This document shows positions 3,975-33,770 of a DNA stretch of 37,968 bases, piece by piece (position 1 is the first letter of the stretch; every line of letters begins with the position of its first letter). A program made the translations under genes and the position numbers. Source of the DNA: a virus. Location of the stretch: IMG/VR virus record IMGVR_UViG_3300045988_169084. The stretch is one strand, 5' to 3'. The notes beneath the pieces were generated by a model, which saw nothing but the letters and a program-made list of their open reading frames with translations, had not been told where the DNA came from and made no database searches.

Positions 3975-4555
3975 TCTTTGCAGTAATCTTCCACTCCTAG
4001 AGCGATAGAATTGGCGATGCTCTCAGGGTGGTGTTTCATTACGTCGGCATCTCCGGGATTAGTAATGAACCCGCACTCGCAAAGCACCCACACTGGTTTT
4101 GTCTTTTTCAGGATTGCAAGATTAGAGCGCTCCTGAATAGCATCAGCTCTCCCCGGTAAAATGCCAGTCAGATACTCCGCAATACATTGAGCGAGCTTGC
4201 GCCCCCGGGAAGAGCTTGGGAAAAAGCACACATGGGCACCGTGTGGGACTGGATTAGGAATAGTGATAATCTCGATCAGCTTGTTTTCATCTACTTCTCT
4301 CCTTTTCTTCTGCGCAGAATCGCAATGGATACTGATGCCGAAGTCATAGCCGCCAGAATTAGCCGCACGGATAGTAGCATTAAGGTCTCCCGTGTTGCTC
4401 ATGTCGGGGAAGTCAATAACATGGACGTCATGGCCTTTGTCCTTCAACTCAGTAAACAGGTGGTCCACGATTGAAGTGGCTATGGCATGCTCCTCAAATC
4501 CATTCCCACGCGCTCCAGTTCCGCGAGCGTGTCCAATATCAAGTGCTATTTTCAT
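3971..4555 (-). CDS. N-acetylmuramoyl-L-alanine amidase (Amidase_3-type endolysin)
   Basis: N-terminal 'IALDIGHARGTGARG...EE' and 'ISIHCDSA' resemble the Zn-ligand motifs of Amidase_3 (DxGHGG...E ... SxHxDA). The gene sits in a lysis cluster. Confidence 0.65.
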   Translation of the reverse strand: MKIALDIGHARGTGARGNGFEEHAIATSIVDHLFTELKDKGHDVHVIDFPDMSNTGDLNATIRAANSGGYDFGISIHCDSAQKKRREVDENKLIEIITIPNPVPHGAHVCFFPSSSRGRKLAQCIAEYLTGILPGRADAIQERSNLAILKKTKPVWVLCECGFITNPGDADVMKHHPESIANSIALGVEDYCKE

Positions 4556-5771: not shown

Positions 5772-6155
5772 TTAAATCGCGCTTAAGAAGTAAGCATCGC
5801 CTATAACGTCATAATCGTTAAAGCCAACGCAGGTGCATACCGACGCAATATTGGCACTGCATAAACATGTCATTTCAATGCTCATGCCTTTCTTTGGAGT
5901 TATCTCATAATTACTTCCAACAAGTGTTGGGGTTTCATATTTCACAGTCCCATCACCTTGATCTACTGCGATTTGTAGGTACTGGACAATAGCCTGCGGG
6001 ATTTGTATTTTTGCCCCATCATTGTAAGAAGATCTCCTAGGATTAAGCTTAACTTTCATGTTAGAACTAGTAGGGAGGCCTTCAATTAGAAAGCTCTGAT
6101 TAGTGCTATTATTAGCAAAGCCTCTAGCTCTTACGTAATTTAAAAATGTTGCCAT
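5772..6155 (-). CDS. hypothetical protein (127 aa)
   Basis: ORF in the tail/lysis operon. No motif recognised. Confidence 0.4.
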   Translation of the reverse strand: MATFLNYVRARGFANNSTNQSFLIEGLPTSSNMKVKLNPRRSSYNDGAKIQIPQAIVQYLQIAVDQGDGTVKYETPTLVGSNYEITPKKGMSIEMTCLCSANIASVCTCVGFNDYDVIGDAYFLSAI

Positions 6156-6178: not shown

Positions 6179-7255
6179 TTACTGAGGGTTTACAGCCACG
6201 CTTCCTATGAACACTTTTGCCGTGTCAGTTGTAACGTAGATCGTACGTGAGTCTTTAGTTGCAAGCCCGTCGTATTGCGCTTGGGTTAAGGAAATGTTTA
6301 ACTTAGCGTACGCCGCATCGCACATCGCCTTATTCATCAAGTCCGTATCTGCTGGGGTCGCTTTTGTCGTGCGGGTAGCTCCAGCAAGGAAATTAGCGGT
6401 GCCGTTGAAAGTAGAAGGCGCGCTAATTTCTACGGAGACTAAGAATCGGAGAACAGAATCTGGTCCCCCTCCTACAGTTGCAGTCGCATCATCGTTAGCC
6501 ATGACGCCTACTGAATACGAGCCTGTCCCAAACTGTAATATATGTCCGGGAGAAATTATAAGAGAGGACGCACAAGTCACGTCTTCTTGGAATTGGCTAG
6601 TGACGGCAACGTCTAAATGTGTGGAGTTGCCTCCCTCAATTACGTAAGCGCCATTAGCTCCTTCTCCATGAAGCTTTAATGCGTTATCACCTGAACCAAT
6701 CACTAGGGGCACTTCATTGCCCATCGTAATCCCACCAGTAAAGGTCTTAGTCCCAGCTATGCTCTGATTGCCGATAAGTTTTACTGTGCTGTTTAGCGCA
6801 GTGTTGACCATCTCGGAGTTCATTACATCAGTAAGCGCAGGACTAGCTACTGTCTTCCGCTGGAGCGTACTCTGGAAAACCCATGCACCCGTAATTGTCT
6901 GCGAGGCAGACGGGTCAAAAGAATCACCGCCTCCCCCGGACGACGCACCGAGCGAGGCAACCTTAAAATCCAACGGAGTTAATACATACTGTGTATTTAA
7001 ATCTACATTTACAGTTGTATATGAGGAGATCGCTATGAAAATATATTGCCCTGCTTTACTAGCATTAAGCAATGTAATTCCATCTGGCGTATATTCCGGG
7101 GCGTCATGTCCTGCAACAGTTAGACTCCCAGTCGTTAAAGTCAGGCAGTACGATTTGCCAGCCATTGTGCGGAACGTTTGAGAAGTCTCATCTCCAGCAG
7201 TAGCAGGTGGTTCAACACCACCATTGCCCCCCCACCAATTCAATATTAGGGTCAA
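6179..7255 (-). CDS. tail fiber protein; the annotated start is TTG, and the likely native start is the ATG at 7292 in the -1 frame, joined through a G7 homopolymer
   Basis: Gly/Thr/Ser-rich with fiber-like motifs ('GNQSIAGTKTFTGGITMG', C-terminal 'TPADTDLMNKAMCDAAYAKL'). Position corresponds to T7 gene 17. There is no in-frame ATG upstream. Confidence 0.55.
   Translation of the reverse strand: MTLILNWWGGNGGVEPPATAGDETSQTFRTMAGKSYCLTLTTGSLTVAGHDAPEYTPDGITLLNASKAGQYIFIAISSYTTVNVDLNTQYVLTPLDFKVASLGASSGGGGDSFDPSASQTITGAWVFQSTLQRKTVASPALTDVMNSEMVNTALNSTVKLIGNQSIAGTKTFTGGITMGNEVPLVIGSGDNALKLHGEGANGAYVIEGGNSTHLDVAVTSQFQEDVTCASSLIISPGHILQFGTGSYSVGVMANDDATATVGGGPDSVLRFLVSVEISAPSTFNGTANFLAGATRTTKATPADTDLMNKAMCDAAYAKLNISLTQAQYDGLATKDSRTIYVTTDTAKVFIGSVAVNPQ
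7227..7233. repeat. C7 (plus) / G7 (minus) homopolymer at the 5' end of the tail-fiber gene
   Basis: Counted directly in the sequence. Removing one G fuses the ATG-initiated 26-codon leader ORF (7292..7212, MATKKTLTTTSGLDPNIELVGG...) in frame to the tail-fiber ORF. Confidence 0.8.
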
Positions 7256-7312
7256 GCCCCGACGTAGTTGTTAATGTTTTCTTTGTTGCCATATTTTGTT
7301 TAATGTTAAACG

Positions 7313-10300
7313 TTATTTGGTCTGCCAGCCGTTATCTTTGAGCTTCTTGTTAACTCGCCTAAGTTCCCGGGAAAGCCTTCTGTATTCTACGCTACGTTCA
7401 CCATAGGTACTCTTGGCCTCACGCTTCTCTTTACGCAATCTACGTGCGCTTTGCAATAGTTTTTCTCTGGTGTCGTAGAAGGGGTTGAGGTCAGACCTCG
7501 TAGTCTTGGCCGCATTGTGCGCTTGGAGAGTGGCATTGGACAAGGAGCTGATGACTTCAAACACACGTCCCACAGTTTTCGCATTGGCGATATTAGCTCC
7601 AAGGCCAATCGTATCTCCCAGCGTCCGGCTAAGACCTGCCCCAACTTCAATCCATTCGTTTAGAGTCACGGCGTCCATGTCTTCCGTACTCTTCAATATG
7701 ACTTCGTAAGCTTGGGAAAGACCTCGTGCGGTTCTGCTAAAGTCCGTTAGCGTGTTAGGACGGGAGAAGACGTGGCCGCCTCCAAACGCATAGTAATCCA
7801 GCGCTTGGAACAAACCTGCGAATACAGGGGTGGCGACAAGCGGGCCAAGAGACATGTTGAAGAGAATCGTTTCTGCCGAGAATTCATCATCGTTATAGCT
7901 CGTGAAGAAGGAAGCCGCCATGCCCGAAATGGTATTAGCAAAGCCAACGATAGTCCACATGCGGATGAAGTTGGCAAGCTTCCTCATGGAGCTAATGTCG
8001 CCACGCTTGAACTGGCTGAAAAGAAGAGCTGACTTGTTCAGCATGTCGCTCATGAACAAGACTTGGTAAGATTCGTAAGCTGATCCTCCAAGTGTGCCAA
8101 TAGCGCGAGTAGATTGATTCTCAGGCTGGGCCGACTTTAGAATGTTAAGATTCAACTGGTCTATAATCTGCTCTTTCTTCAAGCCCCTATCATGCAGGAT
8201 TTGCGCGGCCATCATGTTGCCACGCTTTACGCACCACAGGTCAAAGTCAATCAATGCCGAGTTGCCGCACTCCTGCCAGTACATGACCTGAGCCTGCTTC
8301 TCCTTTGGGGCGTCCATAGCGGCTTTGATTACCGCCCTATCCTGATACGACAATGTGTCGCGAGCCTTCACGCCGTCCAGCTGGGACATCTCTTGGAGAG
8401 AAATAGGCTGAGGGTTGAATAGCCAGCTACCCATGCTCTTTATAATCTCAAGACTGCTAAAGTCCGATCCTACCAACGGATTGAAGAACGCCGCACCGCT
8501 CCGGCAAATGGAAGCCATAGAGTTAAAAATCTTCGTGCGGGCAAGAGTTCCAATCGCTTTGACGAAAAGCTCTCCGAATAATCCCTGCTGTGCACGGATG
8601 CGTCCTTCATTCAGGAAATTATAAAGGCCCTTGCTTGCCTGCTGGTAGTTCTCCTTGCCGATGACAAGCTGTATTTGTGCGGCCGTCTTCGTATTCAGCC
8701 AAACTTTGTTGAAGTACTCATTCAATTCAAGGGAAGACATCCAGCCTTCCGCTATCTGAGCGTACCTTTCAAACTCCTGAACCGGATTTACCAGCATAGT
8801 TATTTCCGCAGAAGCCGGGGTGCTTCTCTTCTTCATGAAGGCGGGCTTGCCGGAATAAGTTATCTGCCCGGGAGTGTACCCTTGAGAATCATAGAACCCG
8901 TCCCCTAATTGCCCCTCATGGGCCGTGGTGCGTGGAGTATAGAAGTCTTCCATCGTAGAGACCTGACCGAAGAAAGACTCTTCGATGCTGGCCACCCTCT
9001 GGCCTAGTTCACGATACGCCGTCTGAATGGAGCGTGCCAAGAACAACCCGTCCGGACCAAGCGCATTAATAAGCGCCTCCTGATCTTTAGCGAGCCTATC
9101 CTGAAACGCTTCTTCTGCATTATCCACTTCTGCCTCATACTCATCTTGAGTTATCTCCTTATTGGAGAGCTGTTCGTCTAATTGGGATATGCGGCGCTCC
9201 AGAAGAGCATAGTTCCCAAGATCAAGCTTGTAGTTGTTACGCAAGACTTTCACGCCATCAGACTCTTGCATGGTCTGATAAATCTTAATAAGCTGAGTCT
9301 TAACGTATTCTTCGCCCTTGAACTTAACAGGGGCGTTATTCATCTGGTAGAAATGGCGCGCGATTTGAGTTGTCGAATCAGTGTTCTTGATCCCTGCCAG
9401 TTTTGCCGCACCCTTAAGCCATGAAGAGATCATCGCATGCCGCTTCACTCGGGCATTGTCTCTCTGCATGGTTGCCCTCACTACCTCATTCAGCATGAAG
9501 TCACCGTTCCTTTTAAAGCCGGGCAGTGTTCCGAGGATTTCGGATAACTGAACGGTGGAAAGCATTCCTGTAAAGAAACTCTTTAACGAATTGTATTCTC
9601 CAGCTTCCTTGAGAAGATTTCTCAGATCATCCAGTTTCTTCTCTGTACCTACGGCCTTAGCTACTTCATCCTTAAACAGGTTAAGCTTCTGTTCGCGTCT
9701 CTCCAGCTCCTTCCTCCAGCGGAGGCGTCCCTCATCTTGAAGTTGCTTCAATGCGTCAAAAGCATTCTCCTGCTCTGCCAAGCTACGGACGAAGCTGTTC
9801 CCATCTTTGTAGAGAACAGAACCGAATGTATCAAGCAAGGAAATAGATTGCTGAATTTCTATTACTTGAGGGTCATTCGGGTTTTGAGTCTTGTTAATAG
9901 TCCTCTCAAGGAGGGCCTGCAATGCGTCTTGCTGGGCCTCTACCTTCTCTGGAGACATCTTCATCAGCTCCTCAACGGCAAGCGTGTTATAACGGCTCTG
10001 TGCGTCCAGCGTGGAGCTTACGCCCTTCCTATCTTTATAGGCTCTCTTTGCCAGCCGCTCCAGCCCCTCGGTAGTCTTGACTTGTTGGGCCGCCTCAGCA
10101 CGGAGCGCCGCCGCTTCTTCCTTGGAAGATTCTTTCAAGACCCTATCAACAATCTTCCTAACCTCACGTTGCGTACGGTTGAATTCGGCAGTTTGTATCT
10201 GGTTGTTGATAGCTTTAACTCCACGGTCTAGCGCCGTTTGAAGGGCATTCTCAAATTGTAGTTGGCTCTTCGGGTTAGCTAGTGTTTCAGCTAATGACCT

Positions 10301-13300
10301 TGGTATAAATGATTTACCATAACGGCTAATAGCATTCTCAAGAGTAAGGACGCTGTTAAACAATGCCTTCTGCTGGCGCGCCTGAGAGAACTTCCCAGCT
10401 ACTGCTTGCTCGGCAAGGCCCATGAAAGACTTGCGTATTGCCTTGAGACTGTTAATGGCCTGAGAAGAATTGCTCTCAAAGATATCTGCGATTGCCTTTT
10501 CAACGGTCTGGATTCCCGGACCTACACGCAAAGCGCTTGTTCTCTCCTGAACGGAAGGAAGGATCGCCGCCCCTGCCGCCTCATTAATCATGGACGCGAT
10601 GTCTCTGGCCTGCGTCTGGTCTGCCACATTAGCTAGAGACTGGGACCATTTAACAAAGTCTGCATCAAGAACTCCATCCTCAATGGCCTGCTTGATGCGC
10701 TGGCCTTCCTTAAAGATGTTCCCAACTTCTGCAATATTGTCCTTCTGCCATTCAAGGATGCTCTGCACATCCCCGGGAAGAGTACCGAACAGTTCCGGGT
10801 TAGTGGCAAGCGCTTTCCCCATAGTGGCTAAGGCTTCTTGCAAGATAACATCATCAGACAAGTTCCCAAAATCCCGGCCAGTGTACTCTCCATACTTGCG
10901 AATGGCGTTCTCAATATACTCCCGGGTGACTGCCCCCGTGGCAAGATCATACGTCGCATTGGCATGGATGACTTCTTCCAGAATGTCTAGTGGATTGGCT
11001 CTCCCTTCGATGACCGCTATTTGCCCAGCACGATACGCCGAAACAACCTCCAAATTATTAGCAACGTCCTCAACGGTAATTTCACCTGCATTGTATTGTT
11101 CTCGAAGTTCAGGGTTAGATTGAATGTAGGCTAGCGCCCTAGCCCTTGCCGTGGACTGGTTGATTCCTTCCGCATTCTGGATTGAGGAAAGAAGCTCGTC
11201 TTTGCTTATCTCAATGCCTTGACTCTCAATGGCAGGTTCAAGCTGTCTCTGAGCAAATAGATTCAGGGCTTGCACAAAAGAAGGATTGGACGCCAGCGTC
11301 TCGGAAAGATAAGTCCCAGCTACTTCGTCGGTGAGCGTCATGGTAGATTGCTGGCCGCTTTCAGGAGACGTCGTGGTGACGTCCCAAGTACCATCCCCGT
11401 TATCCTTGAACGTGGGCATCAATTCCACATTCTTGAAAAGGTCGGCATTCTTCGCGACGAAATTCAGCATCGCGGCTGAACTGCTACCTACTGTTTCTGG
11501 CGACTGGTTTACATTGGTAGTATTAAAGAGCGCCTCCTGAATTAGGTTGGAGCGCTCCTTGCCGTCAGGCATAGTAGCAATCTGGTGGGCTACATCACTT
11601 TCAATGCCTAGGGCTATAAGAGCTTGAGGGCTTCTGCCTACCTTGTTAACCAAATGATTGGCTTGTACACCACCGAGCGCGCCCATAGAACCGCCAAGAA
11701 CAACAGTAGGAATAAAGAATGCAGGGTCCAAAGGATTGTAATTCTCCCACCAGCCCCTAAGGGTATTCTGTTGAGTTAAATCTGCACCTAGGCTCCGGTA
11801 AAGATTTTCAACTCCAACATATACTGGGTCAGCAATGCTTTCTTGTACGGTTTCCGTTAAAGCACCTGCCGCCCCAGCACGACCTATACGTGCCAATGTC
11901 GATCTTTCTGCTATAGCTTCAACTCCTCTTATCGCAGTAGAACCAAGTCCAGTAGCTCGTACGCCTTTAACTGCTAGACCACCAGTAGACATTGTGAGAG
12001 AATCAAGAGCGCCTTCTAGTGAGCCTACCGTTAATCCATACGCGATTGCCCCTTCTCTACTAGAGTTTGATTTATAAGCATCGAGTCCGGCACTCGAGCC
12101 ATAGACCAATGACCCCATAGCTGTTGCTACGCTGTAAGTTGCAACTGGGTTCCTTGTTGCAATTCCTGTAGCTAAAGAAGACAAGCTGACGGCGGCAATT
12201 TTAGGAACATTATCAACTAAGTTCCTGACCCCCATACCCCAATTGCTCTCAGGCATGTCTCGCATGGAGCGATATTCTTTCTGGATAGCTAGAGCAAGAC
12301 GTTGAAATTTTTCTTCATCTTCGTCTTTCTCAGGAAGCATTCTTAAGAATGACCATATATCTTCATAGGTGTCGTTCAATGCTTGGACCAGCCATACTCT
12401 ATCGTCTTTGGGCAGGAATTCAGGAAGCATCTGAATAGCAATCTTGAACGAACCCGTATTCTCCCCAAGAGCTAGCAACCTGTCAGCCATCTTATCCCAA
12501 TCAAGGGAACCTTCTTTTATATACTCATCCTTAATCCATGAAGTAGCTTCATATGCCGCTTGATATTGCGTCCGCAAATAAGGGGAATTGTTGAAAATGG
12601 AGCGTCCATAAACTGAGTTAGGACCGAGAGAGTCAATGGCTTTCTCAAAGTCTCCTCCATTTTCCAAGAAGGCCGGAAGGAAATCTGCCTCTGCCTTGTA
12701 ATATCCTTCCTTTACTTCATTTGCCCTCTTTAAATCTTGAGAGTACTTATTAATGACGCCATTGATGCTGTCCGTCTTATATTCCCTCATGAGAATAGCG
12801 GCGGCCATCTCATCAGAAATACTCATGTTAGGGAACTTCACTTCCTTGATAGCTCCAAAAAGCTCTCTCTCTTTTGTAGCTTGGTCAGCGCTATTCCAAG
12901 ATGCTATCTGGTCAGCATTCAAAAGTTTCCCTAACTTATTATCGACAACTTCATCTGTATCAATATAAACGTAAAGTCCTTTTTCCGGTTGTATGTTTTG
13001 AGTTAATGCGGAAAAGATAGCGTTGGTCCTCTCTACCTTCTCTCTCCTTAGCTCAAATGTAGGGTCAATCCCTCTCTTCTTCAAGGAATCATTAAGCCGA
13101 AGGATTTCATCCATCATCGAGCTATCGAGAACATTGCTTTGCCTAAACTCCCGTTGAAGCTTTTTATAGGATTCCAAATCTTCGAGAGTTTCCCTACGCA
13201 AAGCATTTGCCCGACTCCCTAAGTAGTTAGCTCTTTCAGTTTCGCTAAGTTCTGCGTATCCCACTCCCTGCGCCCTGCGCTGTTCACGGGCGATAGCTTC

Positions 13301-13402
13301 TTGGTCGCCAGATATTCCAAGCGAAGGAATAACTGATTCATCCAAAGGAGGAGGAGTCACTCCTTCGTCATCAGGCAATACGGGTTCGATAGGCTCGTCC
13401 AT
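7313..13402 (-). CDS. giant internal virion / ejection protein (2029 aa; T7 gp16-position analogue)
   Basis: Single uninterrupted ORF, Ala/Gln/Glu-rich and helical. It is the last of three consecutive internal-protein genes before the tail fiber. Confidence 0.5.
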   Translation of the reverse strand: MDEPIEPVLPDDEGVTPPPLDESVIPSLGISGDQEAIAREQRRAQGVGYAELSETERANYLGSRANALRRETLEDLESYKKLQREFRQSNVLDSSMMDEILRLNDSLKKRGIDPTFELRREKVERTNAIFSALTQNIQPEKGLYVYIDTDEVVDNKLGKLLNADQIASWNSADQATKERELFGAIKEVKFPNMSISDEMAAAILMREYKTDSINGVINKYSQDLKRANEVKEGYYKAEADFLPAFLENGGDFEKAIDSLGPNSVYGRSIFNNSPYLRTQYQAAYEATSWIKDEYIKEGSLDWDKMADRLLALGENTGSFKIAIQMLPEFLPKDDRVWLVQALNDTYEDIWSFLRMLPEKDEDEEKFQRLALAIQKEYRSMRDMPESNWGMGVRNLVDNVPKIAAVSLSSLATGIATRNPVATYSVATAMGSLVYGSSAGLDAYKSNSSREGAIAYGLTVGSLEGALDSLTMSTGGLAVKGVRATGLGSTAIRGVEAIAERSTLARIGRAGAAGALTETVQESIADPVYVGVENLYRSLGADLTQQNTLRGWWENYNPLDPAFFIPTVVLGGSMGALGGVQANHLVNKVGRSPQALIALGIESDVAHQIATMPDGKERSNLIQEALFNTTNVNQSPETVGSSSAAMLNFVAKNADLFKNVELMPTFKDNGDGTWDVTTTSPESGQQSTMTLTDEVAGTYLSETLASNPSFVQALNLFAQRQLEPAIESQGIEISKDELLSSIQNAEGINQSTARARALAYIQSNPELREQYNAGEITVEDVANNLEVVSAYRAGQIAVIEGRANPLDILEEVIHANATYDLATGAVTREYIENAIRKYGEYTGRDFGNLSDDVILQEALATMGKALATNPELFGTLPGDVQSILEWQKDNIAEVGNIFKEGQRIKQAIEDGVLDADFVKWSQSLANVADQTQARDIASMINEAAGAAILPSVQERTSALRVGPGIQTVEKAIADIFESNSSQAINSLKAIRKSFMGLAEQAVAGKFSQARQQKALFNSVLTLENAISRYGKSFIPRSLAETLANPKSQLQFENALQTALDRGVKAINNQIQTAEFNRTQREVRKIVDRVLKESSKEEAAALRAEAAQQVKTTEGLERLAKRAYKDRKGVSSTLDAQSRYNTLAVEELMKMSPEKVEAQQDALQALLERTINKTQNPNDPQVIEIQQSISLLDTFGSVLYKDGNSFVRSLAEQENAFDALKQLQDEGRLRWRKELERREQKLNLFKDEVAKAVGTEKKLDDLRNLLKEAGEYNSLKSFFTGMLSTVQLSEILGTLPGFKRNGDFMLNEVVRATMQRDNARVKRHAMISSWLKGAAKLAGIKNTDSTTQIARHFYQMNNAPVKFKGEEYVKTQLIKIYQTMQESDGVKVLRNNYKLDLGNYALLERRISQLDEQLSNKEITQDEYEAEVDNAEEAFQDRLAKDQEALINALGPDGLFLARSIQTAYRELGQRVASIEESFFGQVSTMEDFYTPRTTAHEGQLGDGFYDSQGYTPGQITYSGKPAFMKKRSTPASAEITMLVNPVQEFERYAQIAEGWMSSLELNEYFNKVWLNTKTAAQIQLVIGKENYQQASKGLYNFLNEGRIRAQQGLFGELFVKAIGTLARTKIFNSMASICRSGAAFFNPLVGSDFSSLEIIKSMGSWLFNPQPISLQEMSQLDGVKARDTLSYQDRAVIKAAMDAPKEKQAQVMYWQECGNSALIDFDLWCVKRGNMMAAQILHDRGLKKEQIIDQLNLNILKSAQPENQSTRAIGTLGGSAYESYQVLFMSDMLNKSALLFSQFKRGDISSMRKLANFIRMWTIVGFANTISGMAASFFTSYNDDEFSAETILFNMSLGPLVATPVFAGLFQALDYYAFGGGHVFSRPNTLTDFSRTARGLSQAYEVILKSTEDMDAVTLNEWIEVGAGLSRTLGDTIGLGANIANAKTVGRVFEVISSLSNATLQAHNAAKTTRSDLNPFYDTREKLLQSARRLRKEKREAKSTYGERSVEYRRLSRELRRVNKKLKDNGWQTK

Positions 13403-13403: not shown

Positions 13404-15395
13404 TTATCTATTCCAATAAGAGATCAAAGCTGAATATATAGCTTGTTCATCCTCGTCGCTCAAGCCGTTATTTACCCGGAGAAACCTAGCCCTTCTTTCC
13501 GCTTCATTATCCATCGCGTCAGCAGAAGGCTTCTGCAAATAGAATTGATCTATTTCCAATAACTTTCTCGAACCTCCAGAAGATTTATACATATCCTTTG
13601 ACAAGAGAGGCGTTTTAATAGGCTCTCCTGATGAAGAAGAAACTTCATAAATTGAACTGTTGGGAGTCCCAAGAGTCACGACAAAACCACCATTAGGCAT
13701 CTCAGGAAGTTCCGTTTTATCTCCAAGGGTAAAGTTCTGATCTAATGCGATTACTCTGGTAGCGCTTTGCATAGGACCAACGACATCTTCTTCTTGTTGA
13801 AACGCCGAGAAGTAAGAAGTGAACCCCCTAGTGGGAATGCCTGATTCCTTTGAGATTTGAGAAATGGTATCAGCAAGAATCTTGTAACGCTCCTGTTCGG
13901 TCGGAGTCTTGCCGCCGTTCTGCCCCATGAAATCGTACACTTGCTGGGTCGCCTGTGCCCTGACTTGGCCGATGAAGTTCTTAAAGCTTGCATCGTTTTG
14001 AAGGTTAGGAATTTTCTCTCTAACTACATACCTCTTCGCCAAAGTTTCCGGGTCTTCATAGGCACGGCTTTCTGTCTTATCCAGATAATATTGCTTGTTC
14101 TTCCCAACGAAGCTATTATTAAACTCCGCCTCTGTCATGTAGATTGGGGTACCGTTCTTATCTACATAATCTTTCCCAGTATAAAGTGGATATTTGCCTG
14201 TGTCCCATACCCGCTCAACCCACGTTTTCGCATCATCCAGATAGGAAGGCGGCGTGTGCGTCTTCATCAGGTTAATCAAAGACGTCTGATCGTTGGAAGA
14301 AAAGTTGGCTTGCTTTAACGTGGTTCTCAACTGGTTCTCCAAGTTGGCCCTTTGTTCTGGCGTGGCATTCTGGTAAGAAGGGATCATGCTCGCCGCATAT
14401 TTACTAGCTCTAGCAAACTCGGCAGAAGTCGGAGGGATGTTCGCGGTATTCTGCTTGTACATCCTCCAAAGCGTAGCAAACTGCTGGGTATTAATGCCAT
14501 TAACTTCCAATGACTGCTTTGCCTGTTCAATGGAAAATCCTTCTGGAGCCAGCATGAACTGTTCAACAAGAGAGTTGTAGTTCTTCTTCTGGTCTTCATT
14601 GATAAAGGACCGCGCCTGATTGATCCCGTATTGCTGTTGTTCGTAGGAAAGCGCTCTACCTCGAACAGACCCTTTCGTCTGGATTTCCTCGAGCAATCCA
14701 TATGGGTTGGTCAAAGCCATTTGCTGGACCTCATCAGTAGTCCTCGCTTGGTCAATTGTGAAGTTAAGCTTCATCTTCTGAGCATCGCTAAGATAAGGAG
14801 TCTCTTCCGTGATGCGTGAAGCTTCATCAAACTGCCCGCTTTTAATCGCAATATCAATAGCGGCATTAGTTTCGTCAGCCGCCATCTGTGAGACACGTAG
14901 CGCCGCAGTCCTAGCAACCTGCACCGCCTCTTTAGCTTTGATCTGATTCAAGGCTTCATCGGTCAGCAATCTGTTCTTGCCGACCAAGAAAGCGCCGTCA
15001 AACCTAGTATTAATATCTTCTTGAGCTAAGGCCATCCTCTCCTGATAAACCTGAGTCCACATGCTCGGCTTGTTCATGTATTCAGGATCGGTAGATAAAG
15101 ACGAAATGATCTTAGCAGAAGCATTTGTAAGCTCAGCCTGCATGCGCCTAGACATGATACTGTCGTTAACCGTCTCAACTTCTGCCTTGGCTTTCCCGAT
15201 TAAGGAGAGACCTTCTGTTAAATTCCTCGCCGCACGATTGCTTGTCTCCGCATTAAATTCACTGCCGATCGGAACAAAGCGCGACACATCGCTTTGCCCC
15301 GTAGAAGCATAACGATTGTCCGGTGACCCCGGCATCGTTGCGTTTCTCGCCTGACTCGGAACTCCAAGACGAATGTTTCTTGTATCTTCTGCCAT
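13404..15395 (-). CDS. internal virion protein (663 aa; gp15-position analogue)
   Basis: Gene order and size. Its stop overlaps the next start (ATAAAATG context). Confidence 0.45.
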   Translation of the reverse strand: MAEDTRNIRLGVPSQARNATMPGSPDNRYASTGQSDVSRFVPIGSEFNAETSNRAARNLTEGLSLIGKAKAEVETVNDSIMSRRMQAELTNASAKIISSLSTDPEYMNKPSMWTQVYQERMALAQEDINTRFDGAFLVGKNRLLTDEALNQIKAKEAVQVARTAALRVSQMAADETNAAIDIAIKSGQFDEASRITEETPYLSDAQKMKLNFTIDQARTTDEVQQMALTNPYGLLEEIQTKGSVRGRALSYEQQQYGINQARSFINEDQKKNYNSLVEQFMLAPEGFSIEQAKQSLEVNGINTQQFATLWRMYKQNTANIPPTSAEFARASKYAASMIPSYQNATPEQRANLENQLRTTLKQANFSSNDQTSLINLMKTHTPPSYLDDAKTWVERVWDTGKYPLYTGKDYVDKNGTPIYMTEAEFNNSFVGKNKQYYLDKTESRAYEDPETLAKRYVVREKIPNLQNDASFKNFIGQVRAQATQQVYDFMGQNGGKTPTEQERYKILADTISQISKESGIPTRGFTSYFSAFQQEEDVVGPMQSATRVIALDQNFTLGDKTELPEMPNGGFVVTLGTPNSSIYEVSSSSGEPIKTPLLSKDMYKSSGGSRKLLEIDQFYLQKPSADAMDNEAERRARFLRVNNGLSDEDEQAIYSALISYWNR

Positions 15396-15396: not shown

Positions 15397-16326
15397 TTAA
15401 GAGAACCCTCCGATTGATGAACCTATCTTGGAACCTGCTCGCATTCCTACAGGGCCGCCTACAACGGCTCCTATGGTGCTTCCTATGATAGAACCCCACA
15501 TTGAAGTGCGAGCTTGCTTAGCGGCCTTCCTAGCCTGTCCTGCACGCCATGACATGACGCGCGATCGGTACATGGTATCTTGCCTCCTCTGTTCTGCCTC
15601 TCTTTCGGAGTCTGCGATCTGTTGCTCGAACTTGCTCATCGTGCCACGTTGCACGGCCTCAATGGAACCCGAGGTAGGGGCAAAGCCCGTACGCACTGCC
15701 GCCACGCGCTGTTGCGTTAAATACCTTTCCTGATTGCCACGGAGACGCATCATGTTTGTCCCGGCGATCTTGTAAGCGGACTCCGACCTTTCAGCTAATG
15801 CCTGCGCCTGAATATTGTACCCACGTTCGGCAATTTGATACTGGTGTTCTTTGTTAAGATTATCTAGTACATCTCCAAGAACATTGCTAGCCGCACTCCA
15901 CGTCTGAGAATTATTGCCGAACTCCGGCTGAACTTGGTTGTATGTAAGCGGCTGGTTGCTAATAGGTACCGTGCTTGCAGTAGTATTAATGGACGCCACA
16001 CGAGGTTGCATCTCAACGCCATATGTCGAAGACGTCGGCGCAGGTTGGGGCATCTCCGGGTAACCTAATTCGGGAAGAGGAGCATAAGAAGCGGATACTG
16101 CCGTTTCTCCGCTGTCATAATAACCCGGCAACAATCCATCCCCGTATGTAAGATTCGGCACAACTGAATTTTCAATCCAGCTAGGCCAGCTTATCAAAGA
16201 GTCATCTGCCCACCCAAGGTTATCATACGAGGTTGGAATCATAAATGATATATGCTGATAAGACGTCCGTGTTCTTTGCGTCCGTAAACGCGAAATACAA
16301 TCTGGTATCGGTGGATGAAGGGCCAC
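15397..16326 (-). CDS. internal virion protein (309 aa; gp14-position analogue) with a Gly-rich C-terminal hydrophobic segment
   Basis: C-terminal 'GSIIGSTIGAVVGGPVGMRAGSKIGSSIGG' glycine-zipper-like tail. The annotated start lies 104 bp inside the upstream gene, so the real start is probably an internal Met. Confidence 0.4.
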   Translation of the reverse strand: MALHPPIPDCISRLRTQRTRTSYQHISFMIPTSYDNLGWADDSLISWPSWIENSVVPNLTYGDGLLPGYYDSGETAVSASYAPLPELGYPEMPQPAPTSSTYGVEMQPRVASINTTASTVPISNQPLTYNQVQPEFGNNSQTWSAASNVLGDVLDNLNKEHQYQIAERGYNIQAQALAERSESAYKIAGTNMMRLRGNQERYLTQQRVAAVRTGFAPTSGSIEAVQRGTMSKFEQQIADSEREAEQRRQDTMYRSRVMSWRAGQARKAAKQARTSMWGSIIGSTIGAVVGGPVGMRAGSKIGSSIGGFS

Positions 16327-19264
16327 TTAATACCTCATGTCCTCGTCCGTTATTAAGATACAACCTTATCCCTAACGTGTCATTCTTTTTCATCCCCAAA
16401 GGAGCGGAATAATCTAATGCTTCTACCTGCGCTTGGATTCGAGGGTATCCATAAGTCGATGCATAATCCCCCATGACGACACCATTAGGAGCTATGTCAT
16501 CAGACGTGTCCCGCGAGACCTGATACCTTAGCTGGTTGATTTTGGTCGTCATCGCGGGGATGATGTAGTTGGCAGTATTCCCCATAGGCATCGATATGAA
16601 CTCGGACTCAATGTGCAAGCCCCATAAGAAGGAAGAAAACGAACCAGTCATTGAATAGCCAACTAAAGCATTATTCCCGGCTTCAAATGTGGGAGAGAAT
16701 CTAATTCTTCCTCCGGTAAGAGCGCCATTGCTGAAAGAATAATATCCCTCAGGGTTAAGCTCTCCTGTAAACGTCCAGCAATAACCCGTAGTCTTACCAT
16801 CATTAAAACCAGAATTGCCTTGAGTTATAATATCTATCTTTGGATAGATGCCTGAATAAGGGACTAATTGCCCCGGCTCTCCTCCTTGCCAGCATAAACT
16901 AGAGGCTAAATAATAATCTAGGGGGTCTGTATTGCCTGTAACTACTTCCTTTGAGGCAAACGAAGTCCATTCTCCCAAAAATCCTGCTCCACTGAGCAAA
17001 GAAGGGCCACACTCCGCTATCGTTGGGAAGTCAATACACGGGTGGTCAAAGTCCATGTACGCTAAATAATACTCAGCATTGTCCAAAGGAATAGTTGAAC
17101 CAGCCGGAGGAACGCATTGAATGCAGGCGAATATGCCTTCTTGACGCTTCACCGGATTGTGATAGCAAACAACCTGCTTGAACTTCCCTCCTTGAATATC
17201 ATGCCAATGCCAGCCTTGGATTTCCTGCGTGCGGTTGAATAAGAATCCAAGCATCTTCCCATCTTCTGACGTCCCCCACCAAATAGGGTCAGGGTCTTTC
17301 ATAATGCTCTGTGACGTGATGCCGGATTCAAGAAGATCAGAAGCAACAATGGAAACGTCTTCGGACTGGTAGCCGTCAATCTGGAAAGAATAAAGGGAAT
17401 GGATAAGACCTTTCCTGTCCTTCGGGACAAAGAACAAGCTTTCCGTCATCAACTCTCCCTGAAAAGTAGATGAACCCCAGCGGCTCTGTTCTTTAATAGT
17501 AGGGACCGGACTATTAAGATCATCATCATTAATAACCCATTCGCCAATGTCCGTCCCAACAATCAAATCCTTGGAAGAAGAAAGCCACTGAATGACCTGT
17601 GCCTGATTCGCGCCTATCGTAAGGTTCCATCCGGAATCCGATTGGTCATCAACGGAAAAGTCTTCATATCTGTCCACGCGCGACGCCCATATCGTTTGGG
17701 GCTGGGCCTTAGTTCCAGCGAAGATAAGACGGCCTCGCCTGATAGTAACGGCAGAAGGATATCCCTTCTGAACATTAAAGGCGCTTTTTACTAGAGTGTT
17801 GAAATAGTAAATAATTTTATAGTTATTTACGCCGACAAGTTTTCTTTCGACAAAATAGTTCAGTCTAAAATAATTAGTGGCAATATCATTAAAAAAATTA
17901 GTACGATCAGGACAAAATGCCATTGGCAAAATGTTAATATTCCTTAACACTGTCCCATTATTTACGGAACCATTATAATTCTTCTGGTTAATGTAAGTAG
18001 CAAATGGATAGGAATTAATCGAAACCGTATCGGCACATGTCAGCTCAACGGGAAGATTTCTAATAGTTTCAGCCGTATGAATGCCATTTGTAGCTGAATT
18101 TGTAAAAGCGAATCCAAGAAAATATCCATGCGGGGCGCTTCCTGTAATAGTAACTCGCCTATTAGCTGGTTGGGTAGCGTTCGATACATTAGCAATGGAT
18201 ATACCTTTATTCAAGCCTTGGAACGTTTCTCTAATACTCATCCCCGAAACATAGAAGGCATAGCTATTATCAAACTCTTTTCCTACATCAATCTTCCATT
18301 CCCCCTGAACGTAAGCAAATATGATATTTACCGCATTTAAAAATTGAGGATATTTATTTATCTCAGTCCAATTATATAATTGGCCAGTATAATAGGCGTC
18401 AGTCGCTCTAGTGCGAATGTTGCAGTTTACAATATCTCCCGACTGCCATCCCTCAAGCCATTCATTAACAATTGTTCCATACTGAGCAAAATCCCAAGAA
18501 GGATCATATAAGAACGGAATGTCGCAAAACATACTGGAATAAGCAGTAGTTGATTTTGCGTTGTGTTCTATATCAGGATAATCGGACTGGGACATTGCCA
18601 TCATACCAATATCCACAAACTCTGAGCCAATCGTGTCGCTCATGGAGTCAAGGTAATCATCCGAAGACGGAAAGATTAGGAAAGTAAATTCCGTTAACTT
18701 GAAAGTGATATTCCCAGAATCATCACGAGTTCTTGTTAGAACAATAGGGTAGTGATTCTTGTGGACAATCCAAAGCTTGTCGTTCTGCGAGACGTATTTG
18801 ACTTCCTTTAACTCATCTTCCGTGAAGCCGGAAGTCCATCCGTTCTTGGCATACTCCTGTTTAAGATCAAGAGGGATATTCCAAATAGGGCGCGGATATT
18901 CATCAAGATGCCCGCATTGATAGATTGTAGCGAAACCAGAAAGGCCCGGCTTCACACCAGCATGCAGGCATACGATGTAAATGTCCTCCGAAGTACAGGG
19001 AAAGTAAAGCATACGGAAAGGGCCATTCATCCGATCTACCAGCTTGAATCCCGGTCGTCGTTGAAGCTTCCCATATTGGCGTGGAATAAAGTTACGCATG
19101 CGAGAACACGACGTAAGATAACGTTGCATGTCCACGCGAGGCGTGAAAGATTCTGAGACTTGCCCTCCATTGAAGTTAAGTTGAAGCTGTGTTTGCCTGT
19201 TGTCTGCCATGTTATAAAAGCTTGTTATGGCCGCCAAAGGGGAAAGTCGTTCCATAGGGAACAC
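16223..19264 (-). CDS. large tail protein (1013 aa; tail tubular protein B/nozzle-like, or tailspike)
   Basis: Size and position after a gp11-like small gene, following T7 gene order. Confidence 0.4.
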   Translation of the reverse strand: MFPMERLSPLAAITSFYNMADNRQTQLQLNFNGGQVSESFTPRVDMQRYLTSCSRMRNFIPRQYGKLQRRPGFKLVDRMNGPFRMLYFPCTSEDIYIVCLHAGVKPGLSGFATIYQCGHLDEYPRPIWNIPLDLKQEYAKNGWTSGFTEDELKEVKYVSQNDKLWIVHKNHYPIVLTRTRDDSGNITFKLTEFTFLIFPSSDDYLDSMSDTIGSEFVDIGMMAMSQSDYPDIEHNAKSTTAYSSMFCDIPFLYDPSWDFAQYGTIVNEWLEGWQSGDIVNCNIRTRATDAYYTGQLYNWTEINKYPQFLNAVNIIFAYVQGEWKIDVGKEFDNSYAFYVSGMSIRETFQGLNKGISIANVSNATQPANRRVTITGSAPHGYFLGFAFTNSATNGIHTAETIRNLPVELTCADTVSINSYPFATYINQKNYNGSVNNGTVLRNINILPMAFCPDRTNFFNDIATNYFRLNYFVERKLVGVNNYKIIYYFNTLVKSAFNVQKGYPSAVTIRRGRLIFAGTKAQPQTIWASRVDRYEDFSVDDQSDSGWNLTIGANQAQVIQWLSSSKDLIVGTDIGEWVINDDDLNSPVPTIKEQSRWGSSTFQGELMTESLFFVPKDRKGLIHSLYSFQIDGYQSEDVSIVASDLLESGITSQSIMKDPDPIWWGTSEDGKMLGFLFNRTQEIQGWHWHDIQGGKFKQVVCYHNPVKRQEGIFACIQCVPPAGSTIPLDNAEYYLAYMDFDHPCIDFPTIAECGPSLLSGAGFLGEWTSFASKEVVTGNTDPLDYYLASSLCWQGGEPGQLVPYSGIYPKIDIITQGNSGFNDGKTTGYCWTFTGELNPEGYYSFSNGALTGGRIRFSPTFEAGNNALVGYSMTGSFSSFLWGLHIESEFISMPMGNTANYIIPAMTTKINQLRYQVSRDTSDDIAPNGVVMGDYASTYGYPRIQAQVEALDYSAPLGMKKNDTLGIRLYLNNGRGHEVLSGPSSTDTRLYFAFTDAKNTDVLSAYIIYDSNLV

Positions 19265-20438: not shown

Positions 20439-20455
20439 GATTTTTTATCCTTTCT

Positions 20456-21448
20456 TTAATAAACCATTTGAGTTCCGGTCACATCAACCTTGAGGACGCC
20501 CTTGTCTTCAATGCGGGTGCAACCCATAGCGAGTTCCGTGTAGGTCTGCCACACGTACTGCTTGTCGCGGCGCTCATCAATGCGTACGAACAGTTCTTCC
20601 AGTACGCCAAAGGCCACGGAGTTCATGTTAAACGCAATACAGGTGCGAACGTTTGCCGTGGAAGTGCCATCCGTCGGATCAGTAGGCGTTCCCAGCGGAC
20701 GAGAGCCGAACGGAAGCATTCCCGGAGACATGGCAACGAACCTAATGCCGAGGTAATCAAAGATGTTACCAGACACCAGCGGGCGGTCCACGTTGTACAA
20801 GATGCTTGCAACCTTTTCCTGAGAAAGCAAGTCCTTAAGCTCTTCATGAGAGATGAGCATGATGATTTCCGGGCCGCCCAAGTCCTGACGGTCCACGTCC
20901 TGACCAAGCACGTTCCGGGAACCAAAGATGTTGCGAACTTGAAGAAGCTTCTCAAGCGTCAAGCCGGAAGCGGTGTACGTCCCGGAAGGATTGTACCCAA
21001 CAGGAATCGTATTCAAAGTTTCGTTGAAAGGAACGGCAACGTCCCCATTCTCCCCAGTCCATGCAGTGCCGATCAAGCCGTTAACTGCGATGTGGTCACG
21101 ACGACGTGCCATTTCCATGCGTTCAGCCTGAACGATGCGAGGAATCGGAGATTCAATCGTACCCGCCTGCATCATTTCAATGCGGCTGATTTCATGCGTG
21201 GTCTTGAACGGCGTGGTCTTCAACCAGCGAACGTTGAAGTTAGCCTGCTGAGGGTTGGTATCGCCGTACAGGTCGGTAATCTCCTGAGAGTTCACCGGAT
21301 CAATGATCTGGAACCTGCGCTGGCGCGAAGCAAGCGGATACACACGCAGATAACGTTCAGTTCGTGAAGTCATCTGCTGGACACCCGCATAGATTGAAGG
21401 CGTGTATTCATTTACCGCCAAATCATAAAAGTTTCCGTAATTAGCCAT
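20456..21448 (-). CDS. major capsid protein (330 aa)
   Basis: Position after the scaffold gene, size close to T7 gp10A, and preceded by a long regulatory intergenic region. Confidence 0.55.
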   Translation of the reverse strand: MANYGNFYDLAVNEYTPSIYAGVQQMTSRTERYLRVYPLASRQRRFQIIDPVNSQEITDLYGDTNPQQANFNVRWLKTTPFKTTHEISRIEMMQAGTIESPIPRIVQAERMEMARRRDHIAVNGLIGTAWTGENGDVAVPFNETLNTIPVGYNPSGTYTASGLTLEKLLQVRNIFGSRNVLGQDVDRQDLGGPEIIMLISHEELKDLLSQEKVASILYNVDRPLVSGNIFDYLGIRFVAMSPGMLPFGSRPLGTPTDPTDGTSTANVRTCIAFNMNSVAFGVLEELFVRIDERRDKQYVWQTYTELAMGCTRIEDKGVLKVDVTGTQMVY

Positions 21449-21746: not shown

Positions 21747-21789
21747 CAATAAAAAACCTTCCTCCGCATCAATTAAAACACGGAGGAAG
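21747..21789 (-). terminator. rho-independent terminator (10-bp stem ccttcctccg/cggaggaagg, followed by a U-run on the minus-strand transcript)
   Basis: Hairpin read directly, followed by an A6 run on the plus strand. It is the first of two tandem terminators downstream of the scaffold gene. Confidence 0.5.
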
Positions 21790-23073: not shown

Positions 23074-24693
23074 TCATCGCATGTTCCCTATAGCGCTCCC
23101 AATGTTCTTCTGGATTTCAGAAGCTTCAAGAGCATTAGCCATCTGATTGGCCCCCTGTTGCGCCGCTTCTCTTTCTTTAATAAGACGGTCAACCTTCGCT
23201 TTATCCTTGAGTATCTTGGTCGGCATCCCAATAGATTTAATCCCTGACCTCATGATAAAATCAGTATCAAAGCTAATCATCACATCAGGATCAATCTGAG
23301 CCAAAGGAATCGCAATCGTCTGCATGAACTCGGAGAATAGCGTCGGCTGGTGACGGTCCAAAAGCATTTGGAAAGGAGTCGTAAACTTGATGCTAAAATC
23401 ATCCAGCGCAGGAACAAGCTTCTCATCTCGAAGAAGCTCATAGCAACGCATCACTACAGGCTGTAGGAACTCTTCCGTCAACCTAGTGTAGGCAGGGGAA
23501 GCAATCCTCGCAGAATACGCTTCGATCATCTGCGCCACCGTCGCCTTCATGTATTGAGGGTCTTTGACCTGCAACAACGGCGCAAACAAATCCATGTCGC
23601 ATGTCTTCTGAATGTTGTTCTCAAGCCTCTGCACCTGCCATTGCATCTCATTAGCCTGCATCATGTTCTGGAACAAGGGCGTCGGCTTGGCCTGAACGTT
23701 CATCGGGTTGAAGGTTGTCACCCCGCCAAACCCCCAGTCAATGTTCCCATCAAATCCTTCCGGCACCAGCATCGGCGGGAATATCTTCTGCATGGCCGAT
23801 TCGCTCAACGCCTTAACGGAGTTGGTCAATTCGGTCTGGTCCCCTAATGCCCTCAAACCAGCACCAACTCCATAAGGAGAGTTGGCAATATCAAAATAGT
23901 TTGAGACGCTCACAGGGCTTGTCCAAAAATACTGCGTCGCCAGAACATCTCCTGACTGGTCAAACACGCTACGCATCACCCACGGCCTGCCATTAGCCTC
24001 TTTAATCAGCTTCTCGTCTCCCGTCCTCTCCACCTTCTCCAGCAAATGGAACACAAGATAGTTGTCAGGATTTACACTGCTCGCCTGATATTTCTCCTTC
24101 ACCATGTCAGGCAGTACATTCTCCGGGAACGTCGCGACAATGTCCTGTATCCTCAACCACTCATCCCAGCAAAACGTATGGACATTCCCAAACTTGTCCC
24201 TGTCCACCATGAAATCCCCTACAGGAATATGCGCAAATTTCAGCATCCCTCGCACCTTGTCCCATTCGGACCAGAAGGCCGCCTGACCGTAAGCCGCACG
24301 ATCAAAGTAAAAAAGCTCGGAAGCCGTGTGGAAGTTGCTGTTGCGCATAAACCACGCAACCTGCCTCCCTGTCTCATAATAAATGTTCTCAATCGTGCTA
24401 TCAATCTGGCTCTGATCGTCGATCTTGGCCAATGGCTCAAAGCTAAACCATCCCTGACTCTTGGGCGTTATAAGCTCATGCTGGCCAGCCGCATTTACCC
24501 TCAAAGCCCTTTCAAGCGTCTGGTCCAAATAGCCAAGGTCCGTCCCAGTAGATTGATAAACCGCACCGTTAATGTTGAACTTCTTCTCAGGATCAACGTA
24601 TTGCGCGATCCTCTGCCAGTTGCTCACGTACCGCTGGCGGAAAGCATACAAATCCGCATGCTTCTGCTTGGCATCTTGTTTGTTGGTAACCAT
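23074..24693 (-). CDS. portal protein (539 aa)
   Basis: Size and position (terminase, then portal, then scaffold, then capsid). Confidence 0.55.
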   Translation of the reverse strand: MVTNKQDAKQKHADLYAFRQRYVSNWQRIAQYVDPEKKFNINGAVYQSTGTDLGYLDQTLERALRVNAAGQHELITPKSQGWFSFEPLAKIDDQSQIDSTIENIYYETGRQVAWFMRNSNFHTASELFYFDRAAYGQAAFWSEWDKVRGMLKFAHIPVGDFMVDRDKFGNVHTFCWDEWLRIQDIVATFPENVLPDMVKEKYQASSVNPDNYLVFHLLEKVERTGDEKLIKEANGRPWVMRSVFDQSGDVLATQYFWTSPVSVSNYFDIANSPYGVGAGLRALGDQTELTNSVKALSESAMQKIFPPMLVPEGFDGNIDWGFGGVTTFNPMNVQAKPTPLFQNMMQANEMQWQVQRLENNIQKTCDMDLFAPLLQVKDPQYMKATVAQMIEAYSARIASPAYTRLTEEFLQPVVMRCYELLRDEKLVPALDDFSIKFTTPFQMLLDRHQPTLFSEFMQTIAIPLAQIDPDVMISFDTDFIMRSGIKSIGMPTKILKDKAKVDRLIKEREAAQQGANQMANALEASEIQKNIGSAIGNMR

Positions 24694-24979: not shown

Positions 24980-25394
24980 GATTTTTTCCCTTTCCTAATA
25001 ATTTAATTAGCAATTCAACTTCTTTTCTCCCGTACAGATACACATTCCCCGCACGAAAGCCAATAAAATATTTCATCCTCTCCTCTTTTATCATCCATCT
25101 TAACAACACTCTAAAATCTCCAACCCCTAAATAAAAGAAGAACCCATTCGCATCATGACGGCTACATGATAACGAAGGAACGCACGCCTGCTTCACCCTA
25201 GACCAGCATTCCTCCACATCAGCCCACCCCTCTTCCATCCGAAAGAAATGCCCCATCACAAGGCATCTATCATCCCATCGCCGATATAAATAACGATGCT
25301 CCTCCCAAGACGCATCAAAATCCGCGCCTAAAGCTTTCAGGACCGCGCGCCCCTCCTCTCCTAGACATGATGCCTTCATAGTTGTTCCTATCAA
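24960..25394 (-). CDS. hypothetical Trp/Arg/Gly-rich protein (144 aa), encoded by a C-depleted sense strand
   Basis: The annotated start overlaps the terminase 3' end by 80 bp, so the true start is probably an internal Met. Composition is biased. Confidence 0.35.
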   Translation of the reverse strand: MIGTTMKASCLGEEGRAVLKALGADFDASWEEHRYLYRRWDDRCLVMGHFFRMEEGWADVEECWSRVKQACVPSLSCSRHDANGFFFYLGVGDFRVLLRWMIKEERMKYFIGFRAGNVYLYGRKEVELLIKLLGKGKNHGRQSV

Positions 25395-32944: not shown

Positions 32945-33002
32945 TTTCTGGCGGATAGCATATAGGCAAAAAAAATCCCCGTTTATATGTGTAAGCCGTC
33001 CT

Positions 33003-33707: not shown

Positions 33708-33770
33708 TAAATCCCCCCCGGCAGTTTGTGGTTTTTCTGCCGGGGGGATTTATTATGCGGTAATTAAGCG
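33690..33770. terminator. bidirectional terminator: ~34-bp near-perfect inverted repeat around a 13-nt loop (inner GC stem ccccccggcag/ctgccgggggg), shared by two convergent genes
   Basis: Read directly. The arms extend into both coding regions, so both proteins end in ...RLITA. Confidence 0.6.

Follow-up and report, generated by a model that had tools for sequence, protein, structure and literature searches.

The closest described counterparts of the locus considered here are the polyG tracts in receptor-binding protein genes of Fletchervirus phages of Campylobacter, which are described as 7-11 G long (PMC12633550, PMC10579305) in work that these sources trace to Sorensen et al. 2021 (Cell Rep 35:109214; via PMC10579305, PMC10877375 and PMC12633550). 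In phages T2 and T4, repeats of at least 6 nucleotides (nt) are reported to be contingency loci with reversible changes, which in T2 amount to about 3-7e-4 per population (PMC12633550). Frameshifts of +1 or -1 in the agt and rIIA genes of these phages are attributed to polymerase slippage, are given as arising at about 1e-4 to 1e-3 per population and are read as bet-hedging (Gomez, Barrick and Waters 2025 preprint, PMC12633550). According to the same preprint, repeats of this kind are under-represented in coliphage tail-fibre genes (PMC12633550). On the bacterial side, short polyG tracts of C. jejuni are reported to show a 6:1 to 24:1 bias towards insertions (Bayliss et al. 2012, PMC3401435). 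Here we describe a run of seven G near the 5' end of the tail-fibre gene of a T7-like podovirus, represented by the IMG/VR virus record IMGVR_UViG_3300045988_169084. The whole stretch of 37,968 nucleotides analysed is referred to below as the window. Comparison of the window with its relatives leads us to regard the run as probably, though by no means certainly, a contingency locus at which replication slippage toggles the fibre ON and OFF, the window itself carrying the OFF state.

The G tract and the reading frame of the fibre gene

All coordinates are window positions, and the coding strand is the minus strand. The elements around the frame junction are as follows.

7290..7292, minus strand: ATG start of the fibre gene, 20 nt past the TAA (7315-7313) of the gene for a 2029-amino-acid (aa) protein
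7227..7233, minus strand (plus-strand C7): poly-G tract, read from the sequence; G7 is the +1, out-of-frame allele
7212..7292, minus strand: leader open reading frame (ORF) of the G7 state, 26 codons, MATKKTLTTTSGLDPNIELVGGQWWC*, with its stop TGA at 7214-7212
6179..7226, minus strand: fibre body, residues 23-370 of the fused protein plus stop, from the ORF and an in-silico edit
7253..7255, minus strand: TTG surrogate start used by gene callers for the split gene, probably not a real start
7163..7165, minus strand: internal in-frame ATG (MAGKSY...), which some gene callers take as the start of G7 and G8 alleles
7206..7222, minus strand: predicted 6-bp hairpin GGTGGT-GTTGA-ACCACC, 4 nt 3' of the tract, with the leader TGA in its loop

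An earlier reading of this DNA made from the sequence alone (the sequence-only reading) had described the ATG at 7292 as opening a 26-codon leader through the G7 tract, and both the sequence and the ORF listing agree with that description. The same reading proposed that six Gs would fuse the two frames into a single fibre gene, and this also held: removal of one G in silico yields a continuous 370-aa protein (...ELVGGNGGVEPPATAG...). In this in-frame G6 state the tract covers codons 20-22, GTG GGG GGC, encoding Val-Gly-Gly. Nine Gs give the same fused protein with one additional Gly, while eight lead into the third frame and then to a stop; G6 and G9 are in frame with the ATG at 7292, and G5, G7 and G8 are out of frame. 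Called from the TTG, the body ORF of the window (7255..6179) is 358 aa long. The run of seven is not by itself beyond chance. The 38-kb window holds three 7-nt G/C runs, and one to two are expected from base composition by a hand estimate. What does go beyond chance is the position of this run at the frame junction, together with its length polymorphism.

Comparison with relatives identifies the ATG at 7292 as the true start of the fibre, because every relative, the distant ones that have no tract included, starts at the equivalent ATG. The sequence-only reading was therefore right to place the start there but wrong to call it the only ATG of the gene, and its statement that the long fibre frame has no ATG fails on the in-frame ATG at 7165-7163. 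That the TTG at 7255 or this internal ATG is the genuine start, with an N-terminally truncated fibre as the normal product, is in our view extremely improbable. Gene callers do give such models for G7 alleles, but they choose three different starts on the same DNA (the TTG at 7255, a second TTG giving MNWW..., or the internal ATG), and all in-frame relatives use the ATG at 7292. The gene leaders are A/T-rich, nearly every gene of the window starts at ATG, and no Shine-Dalgarno-like motifs were found in the 25 nt upstream of the window gene starts, which makes a TTG start out of character. The lack of such motifs hints at a Bacteroidota-type host with Shine-Dalgarno-independent initiation. A truncated fibre would also forgo the first ~22 residues, which are almost invariant across all relatives. 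This invariance suggests that these residues matter, presumably for tail docking, and that products begun at the TTG or at the internal ATG would not be equivalent to the complete protein. Because annotation pipelines split or truncate the gene in these three ways, about 15% of genomes carry a misleading fibre model.

The gene probably encodes a host-interaction determinant, to judge from a Phage_tail_C match, a T7-like fibre position and swapped C-terminal modules. The Pfam match on the fused protein scores 34.5 bits against a cutoff of 23.7 and spans residues 335-355, which map to about 6227-6289; the C-terminal modules are exchanged among relatives, with fibre lengths from 209 to 581 aa. 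An AlphaFold model of the fused fibre is poor (mean predicted local distance difference test, pLDDT, 49). It hints only faintly at an unstructured arm of residues 1-29 ahead of a beta domain at ~30-107, and such an arm would fit, weakly, a tolerance of in-frame length changes at the tract. Two further observations concern this protein. The window fibre has PPAT-AGDE where every close relative compared has PPATYAGDE; the missing Tyr codon, at ~7199, amounts to an in-frame deletion of 3 nt some 30 nt downstream from the tract. In 467-aa fibre variants (e.g. P0207 and P0211) the C-terminus, ...KGMSIEMTCLCSAGTATVCTCVGFNDYDVMGNAYFLSAIV, matches the C-terminus of a 127-aa ORF that lies just downstream of the fibre in the window (5772-6155, minus strand). 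The shared C-terminus indicates that the fibre and the 127-aa ORF are fused in some strains and separate in others.

The allele spectrum was assessed in 120 representative relatives (cluster representatives) of the fused fibre protein. Ninety-three are continuous from MATKKTL and read MATKKTL...ELVGGNGG..., 12 are split and start with MTLILNWW as in the window, 7 are called from the internal ATG, and 2 are nine-G in-frame variants (P0025, G9 with an extra Gly, and P0057, with a GTG-to-GGG substitution). When four of the internal-ATG calls were checked in DNA, three proved to be G7 and one G8 (P0042). The frequency of G7 is accordingly 15-19 of 120 cluster representatives, and members sampled from five large clusters (~57) comprise about 44 fused, 7-8 G7-type and 1 G9. 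Overall, G6 accounts for about 80-85% and G7 for about 12-16%, with G5, G8 and in-frame G9 rare; roughly one genome in seven has G7 as its consensus. The evidence for G6, G7 and G8 comes from DNA and that for G5 and G9 from proteins. A search with the third-frame product as predicted brought up the G8 product P0144, which DNA of two samples, on two fibre backbones, confirmed as G8, as well as the G5 product P0145, and in-frame G9 is represented by P0025 and P0159. Runs with G8 include ERR13974918 and ERR13989572. The reported insertion bias of short polyG tracts matches the large excess of G7 over G5. One and the same G7 allele (P0035) is found on 15 contigs from at least 6 samples, and one G7 contig has 121x coverage, which indicates that G7 genomes persist and are abundant. 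Two candidates were rejected in the course of this survey. P0066, taken at first for a third-frame (G8) allele, is G6 with an unrelated 2-nt deletion, and the 132-aa and 149-aa members of the fibre cluster, considered as a second break point, are unrelated proteins swept into the cluster.

Recurrence of G7 and restoration of the frame

Comparison of assemblies identifies G7 as a real variant and not a sequencing mistake. The Logan contig ERR1136767_85 is 100% identical to the window over 21 kb, G7 included, and it is one of the two contigs on which the 358-aa fibre product of the window is present; the other, an ENA-tagged contig of 37,968 bp, is presumably the window itself. In a comparison over about 22 kb with relatives of 99.2-99.3% identity, the window shows a single frame-breaking coding insertion or deletion (indel), the one at the tract; its other coding indels are of 3 nt or multiples of 3, and its other 1-nt indels are intergenic. 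As a control set, 34 loci were anchored on neighbouring genes (tail tube B or the 121-aa gene), independently of the state of the fibre. In these anchored loci the fibre tract was a length variant (G7) in 3 of 22 cases, as against 0 of 158 for other coding homopolymers of 6 nt or more, four coding G6 tracts (26280, 26344, 27456 and 27584) among them (Fisher p=0.0016), a signal that a higher mutation rate and relaxed selection would produce alike. Intergenic homopolymers served as the unconstrained comparison and gave 10 length variants in 118, similar to the fibre tract. Those varying among close relatives lie at 21751-21756 (A5/A6/A7), 28330-28336 (A6/A7), 20441-20446 (T6/T7), 32968-32975 (A7/A8) and 33713-33719 (C6/C7). 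A protein search with the terminase as a tract-splitting control returned one tight 90% cluster that could hide fragments, and the DNA-level controls were used in its place.

Flank haplotypes were compared over 2.8 kb with the tract removed. The G7 loci are scattered over the whole flank-haplotype tree, and the nearest neighbour of most of them is a G6 locus. The nearest flank neighbours of the window are the G6 loci L045 and L031, at 1 difference. The flanks of L039 (G7) show 0 differences from those of L041 (G6), and the nearest G6 genomes of the G7 loci L012 and L015 are at 9 and 5 differences, respectively. On these haplotypes G7 appears to have arisen repeatedly, in at least 8-10 independent lineages with L068 and L069 counted. 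Near-isogenic pairs of ON and OFF genomes are found within a single SRA project. Over 10,095 bp, L039 (SRR13360322) and L041 (SRR13360191) differ by 1 single-nucleotide polymorphism (SNP) and the tract indel, and over 21,368 bp L039 and a further G6 locus, L040 (SRR13360326), differ by 8 SNPs with the tract indel as the sole indel.

Some lineages have regained the frame by other routes. The lineage of P0073 (L010/L011, 5 contigs in NCBI and ENA assemblies) keeps G7 and has lost 7 nt, GGTGGTG, four bases downstream of it. The deletion restores the frame (ELVGGQFEPP...) and takes out the 5' arm of the hairpin at 7206..7222. Such a second-site suppressor presupposes that G7 was real, inherited and disadvantageous in that lineage. 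In L048, an in-frame deletion takes out the tract segment itself (MATKKTLTTTSGLDPNIKLFRTIAGK...). Such frame-restoring events point to selection to restore the frame. The fused form is probably ancestral and functional, judging from the 93 continuous representatives and from distant relatives (tail tube protein 60-83% identical), which possess a continuous fibre gene with the equivalent ATG and no G tract. The tract is uninterrupted in all loci; the G6 tracts of the terminase are interrupted in some lineages (GGGGAG, GGAGGG).

Other frame disturbances in the fibre genes of relatives cluster within the first ~130 nt. They comprise compensated double frameshifts (MATKKNINNYVGACPNIELV; GGNGVLNHLLHAGDE) among P0075/P0079/P0103 and P0212, a 2-nt deletion in L013 (GGCAAATCG to GGCATCG) and further entries in P0146 and P0153/P0184, and some gene calls on full-length genomes start only at LLNASK. 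In L005 and L007, two loci that carry the same G7 fibre allele, the gene for the 2029-aa protein is split into 139 + 1869 aa (L005 ~4250-4271). The split is a GAA-to-TAA change within three substitutions in 22 nt; it may be a genuine nonsense mutation or a fault of local assembly. It had been considered as a second homopolymer hotspot, which was rejected since it is a nonsense substitution among clustered SNPs. The 3' end of L022 carries an Illumina Nextera adapter (CTGTCTCTTATACACATCT...) directly after the fibre ATGGC, an instance of adapter contamination in a public assembly.

A probable contingency locus and its alternatives

Under the favoured reading, slipped-strand mispairing during replication would change the length of the tract. 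With G6 or G9, the sequence from the ATG at 7292 to the stop at 6179 would be read as one 370-aa fibre (with the extra Gly for G9), the ON state. With G7, translation from the same ATG would end after 26 codons at the TGA at 7214-7212, and the fibre would be OFF or very low. A population ranging from G5 to G9 would then amount to a phase-variation-like ON/OFF switch of a receptor-binding fibre. In keeping with a contingency locus, we find a mononucleotide repeat in coding sequence, ON and OFF alleles among close relatives, length variability above that of the coding controls, and a gene for host interaction. The phase-variable switch put forward by the sequence-only reading is supported at the level of the population, through the G5-G9 alleles and the near-isogenic ON/OFF pairs. 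Slippage as the mechanism, the OFF phenotype, reversibility within one lineage or population and any adaptive (bet-hedging) value go beyond this pattern and are inferred.

Several considerations weigh against this interpretation. The hallmark of phase variation is a mixture of G6 and G7 within one sample, and the evidence here comes from assemblies only. A G6 tract is short for a classical contingency tract, which typically has 8 or more, and, judging from the 7-nt suppressor, a plain return from G7 to G6 does not seem to outpace other kinds of mutation by an overwhelming margin. A null allele of the only fibre gene at consensus frequency is hard to square with an essential role in adsorption, so that an unproven extra assumption is needed, whether a dispensable fibre, leaky expression or complemented defective genomes. 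If the invariant 5' segment recombined between backbones, some of the recurrence could be only apparent, and related samples may stem from one person or from several. Finally, the first ~100 nt of the fibre gene are invariant as well, leaving no divergence by which selective maintenance of the tract could be gauged.

A homopolymer sequencing or assembly error, with G6 as the true sequence, had been ranked by the sequence-only reading as equal to a switch; we now consider it very improbable. Homopolymers are a classical source of error, the evidence consists of assemblies rather than reads, and the two G7 assemblies of the window genome probably derive from the same reads. Against an error stand, besides that second assembly, the lack of any other frame-breaking coding indel relative to 99%-identical relatives and the 0 of 158 length variants at other coding homopolymers in assemblies of this phage group. 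In addition, G7 recurs on different backgrounds and across many independent samples and assemblers, some libraries at least being Illumina (a Nextera adapter stands at one contig end), and the compensating 7-nt deletion in a G7 lineage cannot come from read error. If G7 is real, it might still be expressed by recoding, through +1 ribosomal frameshifting on GGG-GGG-C or RNA polymerase slippage, as a low-expression state; this we hold to be quite improbable. G7 genomes would then give the G6 product with the junction ...NIELVGGNGGVEPP..., and sequence logic permits it, as a tRNA-Gly bound to GGG can move one base ahead within the run, pair again without mismatch and yield the exact G6 product. 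T7 has six fibre trimers, about 18 copies per virion. If the present phage resembles T7 in this, a low efficiency could suffice, and recoding would explain why G7 genomes persist. However, the need for a frameshift is not conserved, about 80% of relatives being in-frame G6 and the distant ones tract-less. The shift site has no stop or rare codon (GGG makes up 29% of Gly codons), the leader stop follows 4 codons after the tract, the flanking RNA folds in no exceptional way (region z=-0.55), and some lineages have restored the frame in DNA, which implies a G7 allele that is less than fully functional. Runs known to give efficient transcriptional slippage are longer than seven G/C. Programmed frameshifting is not supported; some low-level +1 slippage on GGG-GGG-C may occur and would help explain the thriving G7 genomes.

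The main rival to a contingency locus is a mutational hotspot combined with tolerance, that is, recurrent non-adaptive loss of function at a tract that is no evolved switch. G7 would then be defective or conditionally neutral and would rise by drift or bottlenecks, by complementation during co-infection, or because phages in the gut can do without the fibre. This explanation has a minor but substantial chance of being correct, and the present data do not separate it from a contingency locus. Variation at the intergenic homopolymers of the same genomes (10/118) means that tolerance is enough and that no special mutability is needed. The shortness of a G6 tract favours a hotspot too, as do the other disruptions in the first ~130 nt (P0075/79/103, P0212, L013 and the LLNASK-start calls) and the frame-restoring events, which show that the OFF state is costly in the long run. 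On the other hand, about 12-16% of assemblies have G7 as their consensus, on at least 8-10 backgrounds, and the same G7 allele is found across at least 6 samples, with high coverage in evidence. Such persistence would not be expected if G7 were a dead-end null of the sole fibre gene, with the other coding homopolymers at 0/158. It is a separate claim that G7 genomes are a selected alternative state, with ~1 sample in 7 dominated by phage whose fibre is off or far down, and we consider that claim rather unlikely. If true, it would mean that infection or persistence has a route that does not depend on the fibre, such as bet-hedging against phase-variable host surfaces, or, alternatively, +1 frameshift decoding of G7 with the tract as an expression rheostat.

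The phage and its place among known switching systems

The window has the layout of a T7-like podoviral structural module on the minus strand, with the following genes.

25315-26934, minus strand: terminase
23074-24693, minus strand: portal
20456-21448, minus strand: major capsid protein
16223-19264, minus strand: tail tube B
15397-16326, minus strand: putative internal virion protein
13404-15395, minus strand: putative internal virion protein
7313-13402, minus strand: putative internal virion/ejection protein, 2029 aa, intact in nearly all relatives
6179-7292, minus strand: fibre gene, placed after the internal virion protein genes

No second tail-fibre gene is recognisable in the window. Its ends are identical over 119 bp (1-119 and 37850-37968), and the contig of one relative crosses the end junction without a break, which indicates a complete genome of ~37.85 kb, circularly permuted or terminally redundant. 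The relatives are uncultured T7-like podoviruses of ~37.5 kb from human gut metagenomes. Contig titles show the group to be very common there, and the index of the contig collection lists the neighbouring 121-aa protein in 545 blocks. The fibre region had no near-identity DNA or protein match in 50,697 GenBank phage records. Only 2 contigs matched in an IMG/VR scan for the tract pattern, and a GTDB genome scan for the same pattern, made for host clues and alleles, gave 16 matches, all of them chance matches in unrelated genes.

Several accessory elements were observed in this phage group. The window encodes a 205-aa serine recombinase (33090-33707, plus strand; Pfam Resolvase, 117.9 bits, plus a helix-turn-helix domain), directly behind which lies a 34-nt inverted repeat (33685-33718 / 33742-33775, 97% complementary) holding the other C7 run of the window and a G6 run. 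The recombinase is missing at this position in L043-L047 and looks like an accessory insertion. An invertase-type fibre switch was considered and rejected, as no inverted repeats flank the fibre gene despite the encoded serine recombinase. IS605-family OrfB/TnpB genes (Pfam OrfB_IS605, Cas12f1-like_TNB) stand at different sites in three related phages: L048 (1016-2365), L049 (11295-12623) and L068 (5719 to end). L042 (16336-20364) has a Mob_Pre / Toprim primase / DUF5906 module in place of other window genes. L051 (13831-17021) carries a resolvase, an unknown gene and a Gly_transporter gene, a segment that may be host flank, a mobile-element insertion or part of a chimeric contig. In L023, a CTCTCTTC-type tandem repeat at window ~27884 (ORF 27438-27950) is longer by two 9-nt units, an 18-nt in-frame insertion and hence a second, in-frame simple-repeat length polymorphism.

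Sequence comparison places the window locus as an analogue of the Fletchervirus system, not a homologue. The likeness lies in a G run inside a phage receptor-binding or fibre gene, where one-base changes shift the frame and, in Fletchervirus, switch the protein and give mixed populations. The differences are that the present virus is a T7-like gut podovirus and not a Campylobacter myovirus, that it has G6/G7 at one tract in its only fibre gene and not 7-11 G at several tracts and genes, and that it is known from population metagenomics alone. With T2 and T4 the locus shares a short mononucleotide run (6 nt or more) in phage coding sequence. The T2/T4 repeats, however, are A-runs in accessory genes for DNA modification and lysis inhibition and are experimentally verified, whereas here a poly-G run lies in a structural gene for host recognition, with the OFF allele at consensus frequency in natural samples. 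The polyG/C loci of Campylobacter, Neisseria and Haemophilus resemble it as 5'-proximal coding homopolymers in surface or host-interaction genes with slipped-strand ON/OFF switching, but theirs are typically of 8 or more nt with measured rates, and the present tract is of 6-7 nt and viral. Other fibre-switching systems of phages are the Gin/Cin invertible segments of Mu and P1 and the diversity-generating retroelements of the Bordetella phage BPP-1 (cited in PMC10579305). These too provide heritable, stochastic variation of a host-recognition protein within a phage population, by site-specific inversion or reverse-transcriptase mutagenesis instead of the slippage proposed here.

Should the tract prove to work as a switch, this very common family of human-gut phages would vary its host-recognition fibre by the simplest genetic device. 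Its ON/OFF state would be readable from existing public metagenomes, allowing a test in a natural ecosystem of the ON/OFF ratio against host strain, capsule state, time and person. By analogy, the locus would work like a mechanism already known in phages, where phase variation has so far been shown only in cultured Campylobacter phages and T-even coliphages. What is new in comparison with these systems is the setting, an uncultured and highly prevalent human-gut podovirus whose sole recognisable fibre gene holds the tract, with about one genome in seven carrying OFF as its consensus allele.

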